In this document: one piece after another, positions 4,071 through 32,863 of the stretch
Position numbering within the stretch: the stretch's first letter is position 1
How the letters are laid out: each line of letters starts with the position of its first letter
Assembly (NCBI GenBank): GCA_965217045.1
Contig: OZ244228.1
Span: forward strand, 507,914-571,913
Length of the DNA stretch: 64,000 nt
Direction of reading: 5' to 3'
Origin: Vicinamibacterales bacterium
Lineage (GTDB): Bacteria; Acidobacteriota; Vicinamibacteria; Vicinamibacterales; UBA8438
Translations under genes and position numbers: made by a program
Notes under the pieces: generated by a model
Database searches by the model: none
What the model was told of the DNA's origin: nothing
Seen by the model: the letters and a program-made list of their open reading frames with translations, nothing else

Positions 4071-4413
4071 TACGGGTACCGGCCAAAACGCACGGCCCAT
4101 CGGGCGGTGCACCGGGTGACGACGGCGGTCGTAAAGAACAAGACCACGGTGATAGACGTGGACTTGGCGTCGTATTTCGATACGGTTCGACACGACATCC
4201 TGCTTGGAAAAGTGGCGATTCGGGTAGACGACGACGAAGTTTTACGGCTGTTGAAGCTCATCCTCAAGGCTGGAGGCAAGCGGGGCGTTCCCCAGGGTGG
4301 GGTTATTACTCCCCGAACGCAAAAGGCAACTTTCTGTTCGATCGGGTGATCACCGGCTGGCGAGACCGACCGGTACTTGATCTACGTCTCAAGAGGTAAT
4401 ATGTTTATGCCTC

Positions 4414-4746
4414 ATGGCGCGGGCCACCAAGGCCGACAAGGCGCGCTTGCTCAACGCCGCGTACCGCCTGCTCGGACAGCAGATGGAACGCGCCGAGGCG
4501 GCCCGGCAACTCGGTCGCGAGTGCGCGTTGTCGCGCCGGCAGGCCTACCGCTATCTTCAGGAAGCGGCCGGGCTGAGCGCTCCGCTGCCGGCGGTCGAGC
4601 CGACCGTCGCAGTCACCTTCAAGCTGCCGGTCAGCACCGTACGCGCAATCCGCGCATATGCCCGCCACAGCGGACTCTCCCTCGGACAAGTCGTCACCCA
4701 GGCGGTGACGGCGTTCCTGGACAACTTCCGTCAGCGACGTGGGTGA
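4414..4746 (+). CDS. Small putative DNA-binding protein (HTH-like N-terminus, ribbon-helix-helix-like C-terminus), LSR element orf1
   Basis: 110 aa; AEAARQL..LSRRQAYRYL and TFKLPVSTVRAIRAYA..SLGQVVTQAV patterns; overlaps the next ORF. Confidence 0.65.
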   Translation: MARATKADKARLLNAAYRLLGQQMERAEAARQLGRECALSRRQAYRYLQEAAGLSAPLPAVEPTVAVTFKLPVSTVRAIRAYARHSGLSLGQVVTQAVTAFLDNFRQRRG

Positions 4747-5041
4747 ACGACAACCACGAAGAGCTCCGCGGCAGGTGCAGCTCGATTGCACGTTCGATCG
4801 ACTTCGCGACAGCAAGATCGCCCAGGCGTACACGTTGTTGGTACCGGCCTGTATGCGTCCGGTTGCAGCCCACGGAATGGAGCGTCCACATGCAGATGGC
4901 GGCGATCTACACGCGCGTGTCCTCGAATCAGCAGCGCGAAGCGCACACGATCGCGAGCCAGACGGCGGCGCTGGTCGAATGGGCAGCGACGCTCGATCTG
5001 GAGGTGCCCCGGCAATGGGTCTTCGAAGACGAAGGCTATAG
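4739..5041 (+). CDS. Small hypothetical protein, LSR element orf2
   Basis: GTG start overlaps the orf1 stop; runs into the LSR start in another frame; true length uncertain. Confidence 0.4.
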   Translation: MGERQPRRAPRQVQLDCTFDRLRDSKIAQAYTLLVPACMRPVAAHGMERPHADGGDLHARVLESAARSAHDREPDGGAGRMGSDARSGGAPAMGLRRRRL

Positions 5042-6673
5042 CGGGGCGACGCTCGAACGGCCGGGATTGGAACAGGTGCGCGACCTGGCAGCCGCCGGCG
5101 ACATCCAGGTGGTGCTCGTGCACAGTCCGGACCGGCTGAGTCGGAAGTACGCCTACCAAGTCCTGTTGATCGAAGAGTTCGGACGTCACGGGGTCGAGAC
5201 CCGCTTCCTCAACGGCCCGTCGAACGCCACGGCCGAGGATCAGCTGCTGGTGTAGTTTCAGGGCATGATCGCCGAGTACGAACGCGCTCAGATCCTCGAA
5301 CGGTCGCGTCGTGGCAAGCGGCACCGCGCGCGAGCCGGCGAGATCAGTGTCCTGGGCGGCGCTCCCTATGGTTATCGCTACATTCGCAAGCGTGATGACC
5401 ACCCGGCGGCGTACGTCGTCATCGACGCCGAAGCGCGCGTTGTCCGCGACGTCTACGAGCACTACACCGTCACGGGCTGGAGCATCGCGGCGATCACCCG
5501 CTGGCTCAACGAGCAAGGTATGCCCACGCGGAAGGTCGGCACCCGTTGGGAACGCTCCACCGTATGGGCGATGCTGCGCAATCCGGCCTATCGCGGCACG
5601 GCGTGTTTCGGCAAGACGCGACGAGCCCAACGGCAGCGCGTGACGCGCCCACTACGGCTGCGTGGCGGCGCCGCCAGTCGCGACAGTGCGAACCACGAAC
5701 GGCCGCGCGAGGAATGGATCGAGATCCCGGTGCCGGCGATCGTGGACGAGTCGACCTTCGCGCGCGCACGAACTGCTGCACGAGAACAAGGTGCACGCCC
5801 GGCGGCGCACGATCGAACTGCACGAGAACGAGCCTCGTACAGGGGCTCGTGAGTTGCCAGAAATGTGGCTACGCGCTCTCGCGCGCGTCGGCCCGGTCGA
5901 GCGCCCGGAAGATTCACTACTACCGCTGCATCGGATCCGACGGATGGCGGCACCTCGGCGGCCCCCGGTGCGACACGCGCCCCGTGCGGCAGGACCTCTT
6001 GGACGAGGTCGTCTGGACCGAAGTGATACGGTTGCTTGAGGATCCGGCACTGATCCAACAGGAACTGGATCGCCGGCTGGCCGCCGCTCAGGCTGCTGAC
6101 CCTGCGAAGACCCGCACGCAGGCGGTGGAGCGGGACCTCACTCGAGTCGGGAAGAGCATGGAACGGCTGCTCACCGCCTACCAGGAGGATCTGCTGTCGC
6201 TCGAGCAGCTACGTGAGCGGATGCCGTTGCTGCGTCAACGTGAGCAGACGCTACGCTACGAGTTGAACGCTTTGGTCGAGCAGACTCGCGAGCGCGCCGC
6301 GCATCTGCGCTTGGCCGAGACCCTGTCGGCGTTTCTCACGCGCCTGCGCGCGACGGCCGAGACGCTCGACATCGTGGAGCGGCAGCGAATCGTGCGCCTC
6401 GTCGTCAAGGAGGTCCTCGTCAATGACGACAAGATCGTGATCCGCCACTGCATTCCCGTACCCTCGGGGCCACCGCCAACGAACGGTGGCGGACCGAACA
6501 ACGACGCCGACAACGCTGCGGACCCTCGAAGTTACCTTTTGCGTTCGGGGAGTAATTTCACCCTTGCTCAGCAATCTCTATCTCAACGAGGTGGACAAGA
6601 TGCTGGAGCGGGCGAAGGACGTCACCCGACAAGGACGCTACCACTACATCGAGTATGCTCGATTCGCCGATGA
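4890..6673 (+). pseudogene. Large serine recombinase (resolvase + recombinase + Zn-ribbon + coiled coil); in-frame TAG at 5253-5255 and indels at ~5770-5850
   Basis: AIYTRVSS catalytic motif, EDEGYSG, DRLSR, AEYERAQILERSRRGK, CQKCG..YYRC. The ORF reads through attR into host RT DNA. Confidence 0.9.
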
Positions 6674-6675
6674 CC

Positions 6676-7373
6676 GTGCGCCACGAAGGCGCAGAAGGGA
6701 GGCCGAGATGGCCGCCTAGCTGCAGCCATGCTGCACGAGGGATGAGGGTAGGCCCCTCGGAGCCGCCCGGCAGGGGGAGGCTCCAAACCGCCGTGCGCTG
6801 CTTCGGTCAAGAGCCGGGGTGGTAAGCGTCACGGAAACGGCGCGGCGCGACCGCGTCAGGTAGGGTGCAGGGAGACGAAGTGGATGAACCACCGGCAACG
6901 TGTCGAAAGCGTAGGGACGGTGTCGAAACCGGGGCGAGTCGTTAACCCGGGACGAGTCCAGTGGGAGCCTGCAGCTTGGCTGGGCGGCACCCGGCATAAA
7001 GGTGGCGTGACCCTGCACCAGGCCCTTGTGTGGAACGTGGGAACCTGTCGCCTCGATGTGAAGGGAGAAATCCAAGGGGCCGACCCCCAAGGATGAGAAG
7101 CCCGATGCGAGGCACAGGGGCGGAGCGACCCGTACGAGCGATGAAGTCGGGGAAACTCGATGGAGCAAAGGGGTCGCGTCATCCAGCGTGTCCCGACGGT
7201 CAACCGCGCGTGCGGGAGGAGCCGTCGAGCCACGCGAAGCCGTTCAGGCTGTTCGCCCATTGGCATCTGCTGGGGGTGACGCTGGCGGCTGGATGATGGG
7301 AGCTGTATGAGCGGAGACGTTCACGTACAGTTCTGCGAGCGCCCGGGGGTGAGATTCCCCCGGGCGACTCACC
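6676..7373 (+). mobile_element. Group II intron B, ORF-less deletion derivative, inserted 1 nt after the RT FADD codons
   Basis: GTGCG at 6676; domain V GAGCTGTATGAGCGGAGACGTTCACGTACAGTTC; ends ..GACTCACC. Removal restores TTC GCC GAT GAC C|TG (FADDL). Near-identical to 29753-29190 plus the 3' end of the full copy. Confidence 0.92.
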
Positions 7374-26491: not shown

Positions 26492-27172
26492 GTAGAGTCG
26501 ACGACTGGCGCGGTGGCGGTAGGCGTAGGGGGTAGCTGTTCCCGGCAGCTTTCGCTGATGCCGGTGCCTCACTCCTCGCCATGGCTCCGTTTCCAGTCGC
26601 CGCTCATCGAACCGGACGGGCGGATTTCCCGCATCCGGCTCTCGGGCGAGATCATGCCTTCGCCCACGGAAAGCTCGCCGTTCGCGGAACAAGGCGGGTG
26701 AGCCCGTACTCTTGCCAGAGTCGCTCATCCGGGAAGCGCACGTATTTCCCTAACTGCACCTTGTGCTTGCGACAGAGCCACTGGCGCAGCCGCCGCGTCG
26801 CGTGCCGGTCAATCGCAGCGTAGGCCGGGCTGACCTGCCCCAGGGTGAAGTAGTTCGCCCAACCGGTCAACAGCCGATTGATGCGCGCTACCACCACCGG
26901 CGGCGATAGGGGCCCGTTACGCCGCGTAGTCAGTTCGCTCACGCGACGGCAGATGCTCTGGACGTTCGACTGACTCGGCCGCGTGCCGATATAGGCGCGC
27001 CCCGTGTCCCGCCGGTAGTTGCGCCCAATCCGGTCGCCGAGGAACGTCATCGACTCCTCCGGCAACCGGCAGCAGCGGGTCTTCTCGGCGTTCATCGGCA
27101 GCTTCAGACGCTCCAGCAGGGTTTCGACCGCGGCCAGCATCACCGCTGCCGGCGCTCGGCCGAGCACCGCAA

Positions 27173-27884
27173 GGTGAGTCGCCCGGGGGAATCTCACCCC
27201 CGGGCGCTCGCAGAACTGTACGTGAACGTCTCCGCTCATACAGCTCCCATCATCCAGCCGAGCGTCAGCCCCAGCAGATGCCAGTGGGCGAACAGCCATC
27301 GACCACCGAGCCAGTGAATGGCGCGGCGGCGATGGCGCCGGAGCCTCTTGTATTTCCGCATGGCCCATCGAACCAACAGGCAGTGGCGAAAGACCGAATA
27401 CAGGGCCGACTTGTAGAAACGGCCGTAGAATTGAATCCAGCCACGAAGGCTTCCACATGCGGGCCAGGTCGTCGATGGCCTTGTCGCTGCGCCGAGGGAG
27501 GTGCCAACGTCGCATCTTCTGCCGCATCCGTGTCGCCGCCGCATTGCTCACCGCCGGTATGAAGCTGATGAAGTACTGACCCCATCGATTCTTTGCCCAG
27601 TATCCCAGGAAGGTGAACTGCTCCGTGGGATACTGCCCCGGCCGGTCGTCATCCTTGCAGTAGACGATACGCGTCTTCTCCGGATGTACTTCCAGCCGGA
27701 TTGCGCCGACGCCGTTTGATGTGCGCCAGGACCGCGTCTCCGTCCGACAGTGCGCGACGGCATCCGCATACCTCTCGAACGGAACGTCCGGGACCGCATC
27801 CAGTCGTCGAACGCGAGGTGCAGATATTGGCCAGGAGCGGGCTCGCGGCCCCCTTGGGGCGATCGTGCGCGGTACCAGGGTTCC
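27173..27884 (-). repeat. Degenerate tandem duplicate of the intron B 3' region (master 27885-28664)
   Basis: Same sequence with many small deletions. Confidence 0.85.
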
Positions 27885-27953
27885 GCCCGGGGGAATCTCA
27901 CCCCCGGGCGCTCGCAGAACTGCACGTGAACGTCTCCGCTCATACAGCTCCCA

Positions 27954-29204
27954 TCATCCAGCCGCCGGCGTCAGCCCCAGCAGATGCCAGTGGGCGAACA
28001 GCCGGGGCGCGCGACGCGCAAGACCACCGAGCCAGTGAATGGCGCGGCGGCGATGGCGCCGGAGCCTCTTGTATTTCCGCATGGCCCATCGAACCAACAG
28101 GTCGTTGAAGTGGCGAAAGACCGAATACAGGGCCGACTTGTAGAAACGGCCGTAGAATTGAATCCAGCCACGAAGGACAGGATTCCACATGCGGGCCAGG
28201 TCGTCGATGGCCTTGTCGCTGCGCCGAGGGAGGTGCCAACGTCGCATCTTCTGCCGCATCCGTGTCGCCGCCGCATTGCTCACCGCCGGTATGAAGCTGA
28301 TGAAGTACTGACCCCATCGATTCTTTGCCCGACGAGAGCGAAACGTGTATCCCAGGAAGGTGAACTGCTCCGTGGGATACTGCCCCGGCCGGTCGTCATC
28401 CTTGCAGTAGACGATACGCGTCTTCTCCGGATGTACTTCCAGCCGGCATTGCGCCAGACGACGTTTGATGTGCGCCAGGACCTGCTGCGCCTGCGTCTCC
28501 GTCCGACAGTGCGCGACGATATCATCCGCATACCTCTCGAACGGAACGTCCGGGTGCGTTGACCGCATCCAGTCGTCGAACGCGAGGTGCAAGAAGATAT
28601 TGGCCAGGAGCGGGCTCGCGACGCCCCCTTGGGGCGTTCCCATCGTGCGCGGTACCAGGGTTCCGTCTTCCTGCTGCATGGGAGCGGTCAGCCACCGCTG
28701 CACATAGAGCAGAATCCACCGGCACCGGGTGTACTTCCTGGCCGCACGCATGACGAGCGCGTGGTCCAGGTTGTCAAAGAAGCCGCGGATATCCAGATCG
28801 ATCACCCAGTCATAACGCCAGCATCGCTGCCGGGCCGTCGTGAGTGCGTCGATCGCGGACTTCCGCGGGCGATACCCATACGAATCGGGATGGAACTGTG
28901 GCTCCACGTCCGGTTCCAGGTACATCTTGACCACCGTCTGGGCAATTCTGTCGGCGACAGTGGGAATGCCCAAGCGTCGCTCGCTTCCGTCCTTCTTCGG
29001 TATCCCAACCGACCGGACCGGAGGCGGGAAGTACGTGCCCGACGACATCCGATTCCAAATCTTATAGAGATTGTTCTTCAGGTCCTGCTCGAACATCTCG
29101 ACAGACTCAGCATCGACGCCAGCTGCTCCGTGGTTCGCCTTGACCCGAGTGTAGGCCTCCCAAACCACCCACTTGGAAATACGAAACGGCTTCGCGTGGC
29201 TCGA
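27954..29204 (-). CDS. ltrA: Group II intron reverse transcriptase/maturase, intact, no endonuclease domain (class D / RmInt1-like)
   Basis: KPFRISK..GAAGVD, RRLGIPTVADR, YGYRP, DIRGFFD, GTPQGGVASPLLAN, RYADD, FTFLGY, LRGWIQFY. Start codon uncertain. Confidence 0.93.
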   Translation of the reverse strand, partial: SSHAKPFRISKWVVWEAYTRVKANHGAAGVDAESVEMFEQDLKNNLYKIWNRMSSGTYFPPPVRSVGIPKKDGSERRLGIPTVADRIAQTVVKMYLEPDVEPQFHPDSYGYRPRKSAIDALTTARQRCWRYDWVIDLDIRGFFDNLDHALVMRAARKYTRCRWILLYVQRWLTAPMQQEDGTLVPRTMGTPQGGVASPLLANIFLHLAFDDWMRSTHPDVPFERYADDIVAHCRTETQAQQVLAHIKRRLAQCRLEVHPEKTRIVYCKDDDRPGQYPTEQFTFLGYTFRSRRAKNRWGQYFISFIPAVSNAAATRMRQKMRRWHLPRRSDKAIDDLARMWNPVLRGWIQFYGRFYKSALYSVFRHFNDLLVRWAMRKYKRLRRHRRRAIHWLGGLARRAPRLFAHWHLLGLTPAAG

Positions 29205-29862
29205 CGGCTCCTCCCGCTCGCGCGGTTGACCGTCGGGACACGCTGGATGACGCGACCCCTTTGCTCCATCGAATTTCCTCGACTTCATCGCTCGTACGGG
29301 TCGCTCCGCCCCTGTGCCTCGCATCGGGCTTCTCATCCTTGGGGGTCGGCCCCTTGGACTTCTCCCTTCGCATCGAGGCGACAGGTTCCCACGTTCCGCA
29401 CAAGGGCCTGGTGCAGGGTCACGCCACCTTTATGCCGGGTGCCGCCCAGCCAAGCTGCAGGCTCCCGCTGGACTTGTCCCGGGTTAACGACTCGCCCCGG
29501 TTTCGACACCGTCCCTACGCTTTCGACACGTTGCCGGTGGTTCATTCACTTCGTCTCCCTGCACCCTACCTGGCGCGGTCGCGCCGCGCCGTTTCCGTGA
29601 CGCTTACCACCTCGGCTCTTGACCGAGGCAGCGCACGGCGGTTTGGAGCCTCCCCCTGCCGGGCGGCTCCGAGGGGCCTGCCCTCATCCCTCATGCAGCA
29701 TGGCTGCAGCTAGGTGGCCATCTCGGCCTCCTTTCCGCGCCTTCGTGGCGCACAGTCGTCTGCGTAGTTGACGATTTCCGCCTCGAAGCGCCGGGCGTAG
29801 CCCATTACCTTCCAGCCCAGAATGAAGCGACGCATGTAGACGTTGCTGAACAGCGGTGAACT

Positions 29863-30280
29863 TACTCCCCGAACGCAAAAGATAACTTCGAGGGTCCGCG
29901 GCGTTGTCGGCGTCGTTGTTCGGTCCGCCACCGTTCGTTGGCGGTGGCCCCGAGGGTACGGGAATGCAGTGGCGGATCACGATCTTGTCGTCATTGACGA
30001 GGACCTCCTTGACGATGAGGCGCACGATTCGCTGCCGCTCCACGATGTCGAGCGTCTCGGCCGTCGCGCGCAGGCGCGTGAGAAACGCCGACAGGGTCTC
30101 GGCCAAGCGCAGATGCGCGGCGCGCTCGCGAGTCTGCTCGACCAAAGCGTTCAACTCGTAGCGTAGCGTCTGCTCACGTTGACGCAGCAACGGCATCCGC
30201 TCACGTAGCTGCTCGAGCGACAGCAGATCCTCCTGGTAGGCGGTGAGCAGCCGTTCCATGCTCTTCCCGACTCGAGTGAG
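29863..30280 (-). mobile_element. Right end of a second copy of the LSR element (attR plus recombinase 3' end)
   Basis: Near-identical to ~6137-6554; arm at 29863-29888 joined via an AG core to TTCACCG (S-P) of intron C RT. Confidence 0.9.
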
Positions 30281-30371
30281 AACGGCGGAGCAAAAATAGA
30301 CCACAGCGCGGCGGTGTGTGACGTGGTCCCGGTGGTTTGGACAACTCGAGGGCTTGGTTAAGGTGTATTCC
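30277..30371 (+). mobile_element. Stacked IS-end fragments (IS21-like end 30277-30318, IS3-like left end 30319-30371)
   Basis: AACGGCGGAGCAAAAATAGACCAC resembles IS21 ends; TGACGTGGTCCCGGTGGTTTGGACAAC..TAAGGTGTATTCC resembles the IS3 end at 32114. Confidence 0.5.
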
Positions 30372-30727
30372 GATTGCGAAAGCACGCCCTCGTCGTCCTC
30401 GGCTCCTGCACTGACCGGCGGCTGCCACGGTTGGCACGAGGCCGGTTCGTATCCGGTTATCGATGATGATGATGCGCTGTGGAACTGTGGGAATCTCGCG
30501 GCCGGTGCGCAGGCATGGGCGGCGGCGCTCGCCCGCGAGATTTCCAACGGCCTGTGGGTGCCCGCCTCGCCTCCCTCCGGATTCAGCGCGACGGTGAGCG
30601 GGCGTCCACAGGCCGGGCAGGTCCACAGCGCCGGGTGGGACATGGTGCTCGGTCCGCTCATGCGCTGACGGCTTCCTCCTTCTCGATGAACTGGAACGGT
30701 GCTGGAGCCGGTCAACGAACGGCTCAC

Positions 30728-32114
30728 CGACGTGGTCCGGTTCTCCGGAAAGGTCCCGGACTTGGTCAAGGTGGACCCCGGTTGGTAAATCACGCCCCGC
30801 GTCGTCCCTTGCCTCCCATGCGCGCCGGCGGCTGGCACGGTCGTCACGGCGTCGGTCGTGGCCGCGATGCCCGCCGTGGTGGTCCCACGCCCCGCTGCCC
30901 GCGTGTTCACGCCGCCCGCTCCTCGCGGTAGGCTTCGGCCGGCGTGCGTCCGCCGAGCGCCGAGTGCGGACGCACGTCGCTGTAAAATGTCATCCATTCC
31001 GAGATCACCTGCTCGGCCGCAAACCCGTCCGCCAGCTCGTGAAGATACACCGCTTCATACTTCAGCGACCGCCAGAGCCGCTCGATGAAGACGTTATCCA
31101 GGCACCGACCGCGGCCGTCCATCGAGCACCGCGCGCCCGCAGCCTGGACACGGTCGGTGAACGCCGCGCTCGTAAACTGCGACCCCTGGTCGGTGTTGAA
31201 GATGCCGGGCGTCCGCGTCTGCAGCGCCGCCTCCAGCGCCTCGACGCAGAAGCTGCTATCCATCGTGTTCGACAGCCGCCACGACAGCACATGTCGGCAT
31301 GATCGGCCCAGTCCATGATGCACCGACCGCGGCCGCGACCAGGTCCACAGAAAGCCGGTCGTCACCGGGATGTACGTGATGTCCGCGCACCACACCTGGT
31401 CCGGACGGTCGATCTTCAGTTCGCGCAGCAGGTACGGGTAGACGTGGTGATCCGGCTGCGCGTCGCTCGTGCGCGGCTTGCGGTAGATCGCCTCCAGGCC
31501 CATCAGGCGCATCAGGCGCCGGACTCGAAGGCGCCCCGCCGCCACGCCCTCGCGCCGCAGGTGGCCCGCCATCTGCCGACTGCCGTAGAACGGGTACTGG
31601 AGCGACAAGGCGTCCATCCGCCGCATCAACGCCAGGTTCTCCGCGCTCTCTCCCCGCGGCGCGTAGTACACCGATGAGCGGCTGATGCTCAGCAGCACGC
31701 ATTGGCGCCTGATGCTCAACGCGCCGTCCCGGTCGACCAGGTTCCACCGCGCCGGCCGGCTCAGCGCTGCAACCCCCGCTGAAAAAAATCCCGTTCCATC
31801 GTCAACTCGCCGATCTTCGCGTGCAGGTCGCGGATCGTCGCCTCGTGCTCCGACGGGCCGGGCGATCCGCCGCGGGCGAACACCTCGTCCAACCCCTCGA
31901 CCGCCTGCCGCTTCCAGGTGCCCACCTGGTTCGGATGGACCTCGTGCTTGGCCGCGATCGCCTGCACCGTTCGGTCCCCCCGCAACGCCTCGAGCGCCAC
32001 CCGTTTCTTGAAGTCCGCCGTGAACCGGCGGCGCCGTTTCGTCATCATCCCAGTGCCTCCCCAAGGCCCTGGAATACACCTTAGCCGGTTGTCCGAAAAA
32101 CCGAGACCACCTCA
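30728..32114 (-). mobile_element. IS3-family element (orfA 31761-32048; orfB ~31765-30907 with indels)
   Basis: RRRFTADFKKRVALEAL orfA; T-rich slip site GATTTTTTT; WCADITYI, FNTDQGSQFTS, DNVFIERLWRSLKYE. Confidence 0.88.
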
Positions 32115-32863
32115 CCCCGCTTGTACGGCTGTCCGCCCTTCGGGTTCCGATCCTGGCCCGGCTGCCGCCCGCCCGCGTCGTCCGCCGCCCGCTGTGCCGC
32201 CTCCAGCCGCTCCTTCGCCGCCCGGATCGCCGCCAGGCGATCCTCCCGGCGGCGCAACTCCGACGGCAGCTCGTCGCCGCGTGCGTCCGGCCCAAAGCGC
32301 TTATCCTCAGCCGCGTCGGCGTCGCGTGCCGCCCGCACCAGCGCGTCAATCTCACCGGCCAAGCGCCGCTCTTCCTCCTGCATCCGACCGTAGCTCATCG
32401 CCTTGTGCTTGCTCGCGTTCGCACGAACCTTCGTGCCGTCGATCGACAGCTTGCCAAAGCGCGCCAACCCCAATTCCCGCGCCAGACGCACCACCTCGAC
32501 AAACAGCGCCTTGAAGTCCTCCAGGTGCCGACGCCGAAACTCGCAAACCGTCCGGTGCTGCGGAAAGTTGCCGGCCGCCAGCACCCGGAACGCCACGTCC
32601 TCCTCCAGCCTCCTCGCAATCCCCCGCGACGAAAACACCCCCGTCGCGTAGGCGTAGAGCAGCACCTTCACCATCATCCGCGGCGCATACGGCGCGTTGC
32701 GCCGACCATCCCCCGCATACGCGGCATAGAACGCCGTCAGGTCCAGGCCGTCTACCAGATCGCTGATGTGGTGCGCCAAATGGCCCTCCGGCAACCACGC
32801 CCGCACGTCGGGCGGCAACAGCAGCGATTGGTCCGGTGCGTAGCGGCGAAAAGTCGTCGACAT
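32115..32863 (-). pseudogene. IS1182-family transposase, 3'-truncated by IS3
   Basis: MSTTFRRYAPDQSLLLPPDVRAWLPEGHLA, PRMMVKVLLYAYATG.FSSR, IDGTKVRANASKHKAMSY; left end CTAGGAGTCTGCGCC near 32929. Confidence 0.85.

Follow-up and report, generated by a model that had tools for sequence, protein, structure and literature searches.

The window analysed here, a 64-kb stretch of DNA (64,000 nt), carries two copies of an element that encodes a large serine recombinase (LSR), both lying in reverse transcriptase (RT) genes of group II introns. Copy 2 is a truncated remnant found with its flanking RT sequence at 29754-30280, and the features at and around it are as follows.

26652-27176, minus strand: remaining, maturase part of the intron C RT, which resumes beyond the intron B copies; GIIM match on ORF 26652-27551 and alignment
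27885-29753, minus strand: full-length copy of intron B (Rfam RF01999 and RF00029), present in dozens of copies in the genome
27954-29336, minus strand: RT ORF of intron B (Pfam RVT_1 and GIIM)
28602-28625, minus strand: intron B's own motif-4 site, intact, read from the sequence as GGC GTC GCG AGC CCG
29755-29860, minus strand: intron C RT fragment SPLFSNVYM...NYADD, 106 nt; its arm is found ten times in the genome, five empty and five occupied
29836-29860, minus strand: attB B' arm of intron C, 25 nt, the first part of the intron C RT fragment
29861-29862, minus strand: junction (crossover) dinucleotide AG, read from the sequence
29863-29889, minus strand: right 27-bp inverted end (P arm) of the remnant, part of the LSR element remnant
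29863-30280, minus strand: 3' remnant of the LSR element, 418 nt, with the last ~139 recombinase codons and the right 27-bp inverted end
30281-30318, plus strand: repeat end of ~40 nt with ~28 copies in the genome, which cuts the LSR element at 30280
30319-32115: 1.8-kb insertion sequence next to the ~40-nt repeat end

Read along the minus strand from 30280 to 29754, the C-terminal codons of the LSR are followed by AAGTTATCTTTTGCGTTCGGGGAGTA^AG^TTCACCGCTGTTCAGCAACGTCTACATG...AACTACGCAGACGAC^T^GTGCGCC (carets mark the joints), or, in short form, ...GCGTTCGGGGAGTA^AG^TTCACCGCTGTTCAGCAACGTCTAC...AACTACGCAGACGAC^T^GTGCGCC. The 106-nt piece of intron C translates to SPLFSNVYMRRFILGWKVMGYARRFEAEIVNYADD, part of a third RT, and the SPLFSNVYM...NYADD motifs, the GIIM domain downstream and the domain V/VI Rfam matches further downstream in the intron C region (26492-26643) identify the target as a group II intron RT. 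The element sits in RT domain 4 of intron C, at bases 1 and 2 of the Ile codon that comes before S-P-L-F-S-N. Intron B is inserted one base past the YADD codons of intron C, and the RF01999 match at 29568-29685 is its 5' end. Copy 2 lacks its left junction, the element being truncated at 30280, and a search of the whole 64-kb window found no intron C B arm.

The complete element, copy 1, lies in the RT of a different intron, intron A, where the codon hit is at the position homologous to that hit in intron C:

4290-4304, plus strand: attB B arm of intron A, CCCCAGGGTGGGGTT
4307-6554, plus strand: complete element in the intron A RT, with ends TACTCCCCGAACGCAAAAGGCAACTT and its reverse complement
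6557-6674, plus strand: intron A RT fragment SPLLSNLYL...RFADD, 118 nt, between the element and an ORF-less intron B copy
about 6676-7369, plus strand: ORF-less intron B copy beside copy 1

Here the core is AT on both sides (4305-4306 and 6555-6556), the right junction reads ...GGGGAGTA^AT^TTCACCCTTGCTCAGCAATCTCTAT, and the 118-nt piece of intron A translates to SPLLSNLYLNEVDKMLERAKDVTRQGRYHYIEYARFADD. The remnant at 29863-30280 corresponds to window positions 6137-6554, in copy 1. The tails of the two copies are 99.3% identical over 417 nt, the repeat arms including the first 24 nt of the RT arm are 98% identical, and the remnant is 99.0-99.5% identical to eight other copies in the genome. 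As the earlier note described, the same right end abuts TTCACCG CTG TTC AGC AAC GTC TAC in intron C and TTCACCC TTG CTC AGC AAT CTC TAT in intron A. The same note called the two RT segments between the att site and YADD unrelated. They do share little beyond the first 24 nt, 19 of which match, with only 36 matches in the remaining 70-82 nt to YADD and little in common between the peptides from SPLxSNxY to ADD, but they are homologous RT domains of different families: the N-terminal halves of the RTs are 49% (A/C), 52% (A/D, intron D being described below) and 57% (C/D) identical in amino acid sequence.

The element is 2.25 kb long and carries no cargo: a small HTH-like ORF and the LSR gene lie between two 27-bp inverted ends. 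Its main subfamily is represented in the 6.45-Mb genome (12 contigs) by eight complete or near-complete copies and the window remnant, all 99.3-99.9% identical; three further copies form a subfamily at 82-85%. Intact copies encode a recombinase of at least 552 aa and, upstream of it, a conserved 110-aa ORF that is a candidate, but only a candidate, for a directionality factor. In the recombinase, which has the motif AIYTRVSS near its N-terminus, Pfam identified Resolvase (PF00239, E 1e-32, residues 4-151), Recombinase (PF07508, E 2e-22) and the zinc ribbon Zn_ribbon_recom (PF13408, E 2e-9). When compared with solved structures, it gave its best matches to the catalytic domains of the gamma-delta and Tn3 resolvases; the sole full-length LSR match, a distant one (E 6e-9), was SPbeta SprA/YokA. 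The recombinase frame contains no stop inside the element and exits its right end in every copy, including those of the 82-85% subfamily (6530-6556 and 4307-4400 in the window); in a circle, the frame would run for about 30 further codons into the left end. Copies differ chiefly by indels of 1-11 nt, with substitutions below 0.7%, and the frameshifts in the recombinase of copy 1 may be long-read assembly errors rather than real decay.

Empty and occupied target sites were found in three RT families. Intron A has 20 sites, 17 of them empty (GGGGTT-AT-TTCACCC) and three occupied (two direct, one inverted); in intron C, five of ten sites are empty (GGCACCG-AT-TTCACCG) and five occupied (three direct, including the window copy, and two inverted); and intron D (GGCCCG-CT-TTCTCCC, B' arm TTCTCCCTTGCTGGCCAACGTGTA) has two empty and two occupied arms among four. 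In families A and C, the pattern is a single AT at empty sites and AT on both sides of the element at occupied ones, as illustrated by intron A with GGGGTT-AT-TTCACCC when empty, GGGGTT-AT-TACTCCCC at attL and GGGGAGTA-AT-TTCACCC at attR. As expected of an LSR element, the junctions share the 2-bp core with the empty site, and the target duplication is no longer than this. All eight RT-borne main-subfamily copies with readable junctions, together with the window remnant, sit at the same codon position in the three RT families, a pattern that chance cannot explain.

The presence of both orientations in A and in C, together with the insertions in D, requires at least five events (two each in A and C, and one in D). 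At the level of sequence comparison, these empty sites and sites occupied in both orientations in A and C support the view of the earlier note that copy 2 stems from an integration separate from that of copy 1, into another intron but at the same RT motif. Two full-length sister copies in intron C (C1:183153-185389 and C2:2072302-2068570) have intron C sequence on both sides, which indicates precise exchange into intron C and not carry-over from intron A. We also considered a diversity-generating retroelement with a hypervariable patch; this was ruled out, the patch being a different RT family with its own empty copies.

How many of the intron C copies arose independently of each other is a different matter. 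Copy 2 and the two other direct intron C copies may go back to a common origin, the element having entered intron C once and the composite of intron C, element and intron B having then been copied by intron mobility in trans or by segmental duplication. We give this account a real chance, though one short of even. It would fit with the identical junction position and orientation of the three direct copies, with the presence of intron B at YADD in all ten intron C copies, which implies that composites multiply or are re-invaded, and with the location of several intron C copies at one and the same point of an IS5-like repeat, as homing predicts. The intron B subfamily at YADD, however, varies among the direct copies, being ORF-less at C1:185484 and full-length at C2:2068474 and in the window, a difference that speaks for more than one event; AG is unique to the window copy among the B' arms of the intron C copies, and the inverted intron C copies require a separate event anyway. 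Such copying bears solely on independence from the other intron C copies, not on independence from copy 1.

A chimeric assembly joining reads of copy 1, or of another copy, to an unrelated RT appears very improbable. The genome is admittedly rich in repeats (dozens of intron B copies and nine element copies), the copies differ mostly by small indels as in long-read assemblies, and a partial intron B copy full of short deletions lies downstream at 27163-27884. Against this, the element is joined to intron C in the same way at two other loci, where it is complete and has both junctions, and the joint recurs in other genomes (L003, L004, L007, L014 and L023). Copy 2 has two private substitutions, lacks the private variant of copy 1 and is followed by an intron B of the full-length subfamily instead of the ORF-less one found at copy 1, so it is no assembly echo of copy 1. 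Equally hard to sustain, and if anything less credible, is a single integration followed by gene conversion or recombination that swapped a short RT patch between composites. Repeats of 97-99% identity do bracket the variable patch on both sides, but a donor with intron C between the element end and intron B could itself have arisen only if the element had integrated into intron C. The genome also has empty intron C sites, and the sister copies show left junctions in intron C; the exchange of a patch was therefore rejected.

Taken with the junctions described above, the locus at 29754-30280 is thus read, with high confidence but from sequence comparison, as the putative attR of a truncated 2.25-kb LSR element that integrated separately at an RT motif by means of a palindromic attP. 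The element would excise as a circle whose joined ends, as deduced from the junctions, form the attP GGGGAGTA-AT-TACTCCCC, a perfect palindrome; the predicted circle junction is GCGTTCGGGGAGTA-AT-TACTCCCCGAACGC. The recombinase would then exchange strands at the 2-bp core with an attB whose codons are those of the RT stretch ...P-Q-G-x-x^(I/L)-S-P-L-L-x-N. How the two sites align in serine integrases is decided by the central dinucleotide, and when this is not palindromic only half of the synapses are productive (PMC5062993). The self-complementary AT core of the element would set no polarity and allow entry in either orientation, so that a palindromic attP and a palindromic core together would explain the two insertion orientations. 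At copy 2, the left 1.83 kb of the element and the 5' half of intron C would have been lost later to other insertion sequences.

The core dinucleotide of copy 2 departs from this scheme. The earlier note read the core as AG here and AT in copy 1, which is correct as to the letters; AG is nevertheless not an alternative target core, as the other intron C sites have AT. AT precedes the B' arm at all five empty and the four other occupied intron C sites, and the AGT (Ser) at the insertion codon is an unnatural residue for that position of the RT; the G of AG is consequently not derived from the target. It came either from the element, as the core of a variant attP, or from a later change that locked the copy in place. 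The combination of AT on the left and AG on the right is also found in an inverted copy of the same genome (C2:380616) and at loci L007 and L015, and an empty site in the genome of L015 reads AT. Inheritance of AG with an old insertion common to L007 was ruled out, the window tail being 99% identical to the local copies and 84% to L007. The CT core of intron D equals AG in the sense of an inverted element, and AG stands at the left junction of the intron D copy at C1:845285, which together indicate that a form of the element with an AG/CT core has existed in this genome. A base error is unlikely, as AG recurs elsewhere. The possibility of a random substitution is weakened: AG stands at two of the nine local right junctions, against a divergence of ~0.5% elsewhere (binomial p about 9e-4, post hoc test). 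The remaining readings are that a circle with an AG core recombined with an AT site despite the mismatch, or that a mutation of the core blocks excision and AG copies persist.

Cores of partner sites must match in serine recombination according to the textbook rule. The junctions of relatives of the element in other genomes, whose cores are GC, GT and CT as well as AT, have unequal dinucleotides in about one third of cases, some at both positions, which point mutation alone explains poorly; these unequal dinucleotides and the AG junction do not fit the rule. One tentative interpretation, to which we give well under an even chance, is that AT/AG junctions are the footprint of recombination between mismatched cores or of lock-in mutations, and mark a route by which the core changes (AT, AG/CT, GT/AC, GC). 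If so, a change of core would let the family move among RT families that have Ile, Leu, Val or Ala at the start of the motif, and the enzyme would be a natural serine recombinase tolerant of core mismatch; to our knowledge, the model serine recombinases do not tolerate it.

Core identity may also bear on the RTs that escape. Intact motif-4 sites of intron B are occupied in none of 25 cases in this genome (Fisher p=0.003 against A, C and D together). The earlier note had pointed to GCG AGC CCG in intron B as an uninvaded site, and the site is indeed intact and free here, but a near-identical RT has been invaded in a related MAG. At that locus (L006), the element lies inside a near-identical intron B RT with GC at both junctions (...CCCCAAGGGGGCGTC-GC-GAGCCCGCTCCTGGCCAAC...), and it has ends identical to those of the local element and an LSR 94% identical to the local one. 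The intron B sequence is therefore not refractory. Likewise, a local E-type RT with a GT core is occupied at none of four sites, and the same type has been invaded at L002, with AC at both junctions. Overall, the local AT-core element occupies 8 of 30 AT sites and none of 29 GC or GT sites, yet intron D, with CT, is occupied. Judging from these site counts, the escape of intron B in this genome is most likely due to the core dinucleotide and not to the GCG AGC CCG arm.

Intron B itself shows a number of peculiarities. It is present at YADD in each of the ten intron C copies and in almost every intron A copy; the intron A copy at C2:804690 has a YADD site without intron B, which reads GATAAC instead of GATGAC. 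Head-to-tail arrays of full-length and ORF-less copies occur, for example at C2:252047-257084 and C2:381292-385884. In the window, a second, partial copy (27163-27884, minus strand) adjoins the full-length one, which lacks its last ~6 nt at the joint. The partial copy spans from ~37 nt upstream of motif 4 to the 3' end and shows no substitutions relative to the full copy and about ten deletions of 2-15 nt, a deletion-only pattern that is odd for decay and could reflect an assembly problem or template switching.

A scan that covered a single genome for each species revealed at least 561 relatives of the element, 80 of which were examined; with the copies of the present genome, 90 loci were surveyed. 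The 80 relatives come from Vicinamibacterales, Bryobacterales, Terriglobia, Gemmatimonadota and Alpha-, Gamma- and Deltaproteobacteria, are 69-96% identical in amino acid sequence and are nearly all elements of 2.21-2.25 kb with the same type of ends. The same RT motif, ...G-T-P-Q-G-x-x^(I/V/A/L)-S-P-L-L-(A/S)-N, was hit at 60 of the 90 loci (32 direct, 28 inverted); B' arms on both sides were found at three loci, B arms on both sides at another three, and a non-RT palindrome site at five. The logo of attB sites from homologs that the earlier note had suggested could be built from 73 unique B' arms and reads N-TC-N-CC-N-N-TG-Y-T-N-R-S-N-AA-Y-N-T-N-TA, but what it keeps is codon positions 1-2 only of S-P-L-L-(A/S)-N-x-(Y/F), the wobble position being free. 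Part of this conservation stems from the RT itself and from the classifier, not necessarily from the recombinase. The half-site proposed in the note, TTCACCNNTGNTCAGCAANNTCTA, is real as a special case of the 73-arm logo, but it is too strict, since the element also uses intron D (TTCTCCCTTGCTGGCCAACGTGTA). When six other genomes were searched with a degenerate motif for empty sites, there were only two matches, one of them useful (G002, AT core).

Tn4451/Tn4453 and Tn5397 are clostridial transposons of 6-21 kb with cargo, a GA core and loose targets. They resemble the present element in having an LSR (TnpX and TndX, respectively) as the sole transposase, an implied circular intermediate, a 2-bp dinucleotide at both junctions and ends that resemble the target. 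The present element differs from them in its size of 2.25 kb, its lack of cargo, its perfectly palindromic 27-bp ends, its palindromic AT core and its target, which is one protein-coding motif. DUF4368, which is common in the multi-targeting LSR clade (PMC10083194), was not found in its recombinase by Pfam search, and this absence, together with a core that is AT and not GA, sets the element apart from the TnpX/TndX-type clade. With the multi-targeting LSRs of that survey (PMC10083194) it shares the occurrence of one LSR cluster (copies >99% identical) in several target gene clusters (A, C and D); its targets, however, are one conserved motif of one protein family and not AT-rich relaxed sites, and RT targets are unmentioned in the survey (Durrant et al. 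2022, PMC10083194). The integrases of phages such as Bxb1, phiC31, A118 and SPbeta (SprA) have the same domain architecture, recombine attP with attB at a central dinucleotide and can integrate within genes, A118 in comK and SPbeta in spsM (PMC3556126, PMC5499854). Phage integrases use a single site per genome, with a non-palindromic core and in one orientation, in contrast to the palindromic core, both orientations and many sites in a multi-copy mobile target seen here. The IS607 family likewise comprises minimal IS-like elements moved by a serine recombinase, in this case TnpA, a small enzyme with an N-terminal DNA-binding domain; its members lack terminal inverted repeats and show little target specificity (PMC6188088). 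Group II introns that home to YADD, the lineage of intron B, also parasitise a conserved RT motif of other retroelements, but they do so by RNA-guided retrohoming, whereas the present element would use protein-guided DNA recombination; the two parasites lie 106-118 nt apart in the same RT.

With a second, separate integration at that codon in another RT, what had been one curious insertion becomes a defined target rule. It appears to show a protein recombinase specialised on the DNA sequence for a conserved enzyme motif of another mobile element, and in the open-access literature we found no serine recombinase elements described from the RT genes of group II introns. In these soil bacteria, group II introns bear a parasite layer of their own, which inactivates the RT. 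Owing to the empty sites, the sites occupied in both orientations and the dozens of relatives, both attB and attP can be spelled out and put to a direct test; attP and its core, both palindromic, offer a natural example of orientation-free serine integration, and the family supplies many natural arm and core variants for studies of LSR specificity.

Some copies depart from the common arrangement. The same RT half is found, mirrored, on both sides of the element at C1:843044-845288, at L021, L049 and L058 (B'-B') and at L057, L072 and L077 (B-B), the copy at C1:843044-845288 also missing two bases at its left end; such copies would be expected from inversion between opposed copies, or if the wrong pair of sites had been joined. 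The 82-85% subfamily lies outside RT genes (C2:957550-959795, C12:548550-546365 and C11:313603-315020, and loci L008, L009 and L011). Its target is a perfect palindrome with a GC core, CTATGCGGA-GC-TCCGCATAG, extended to ~50 bp, and one empty palindrome site for it is present in the genome (C12:139653).
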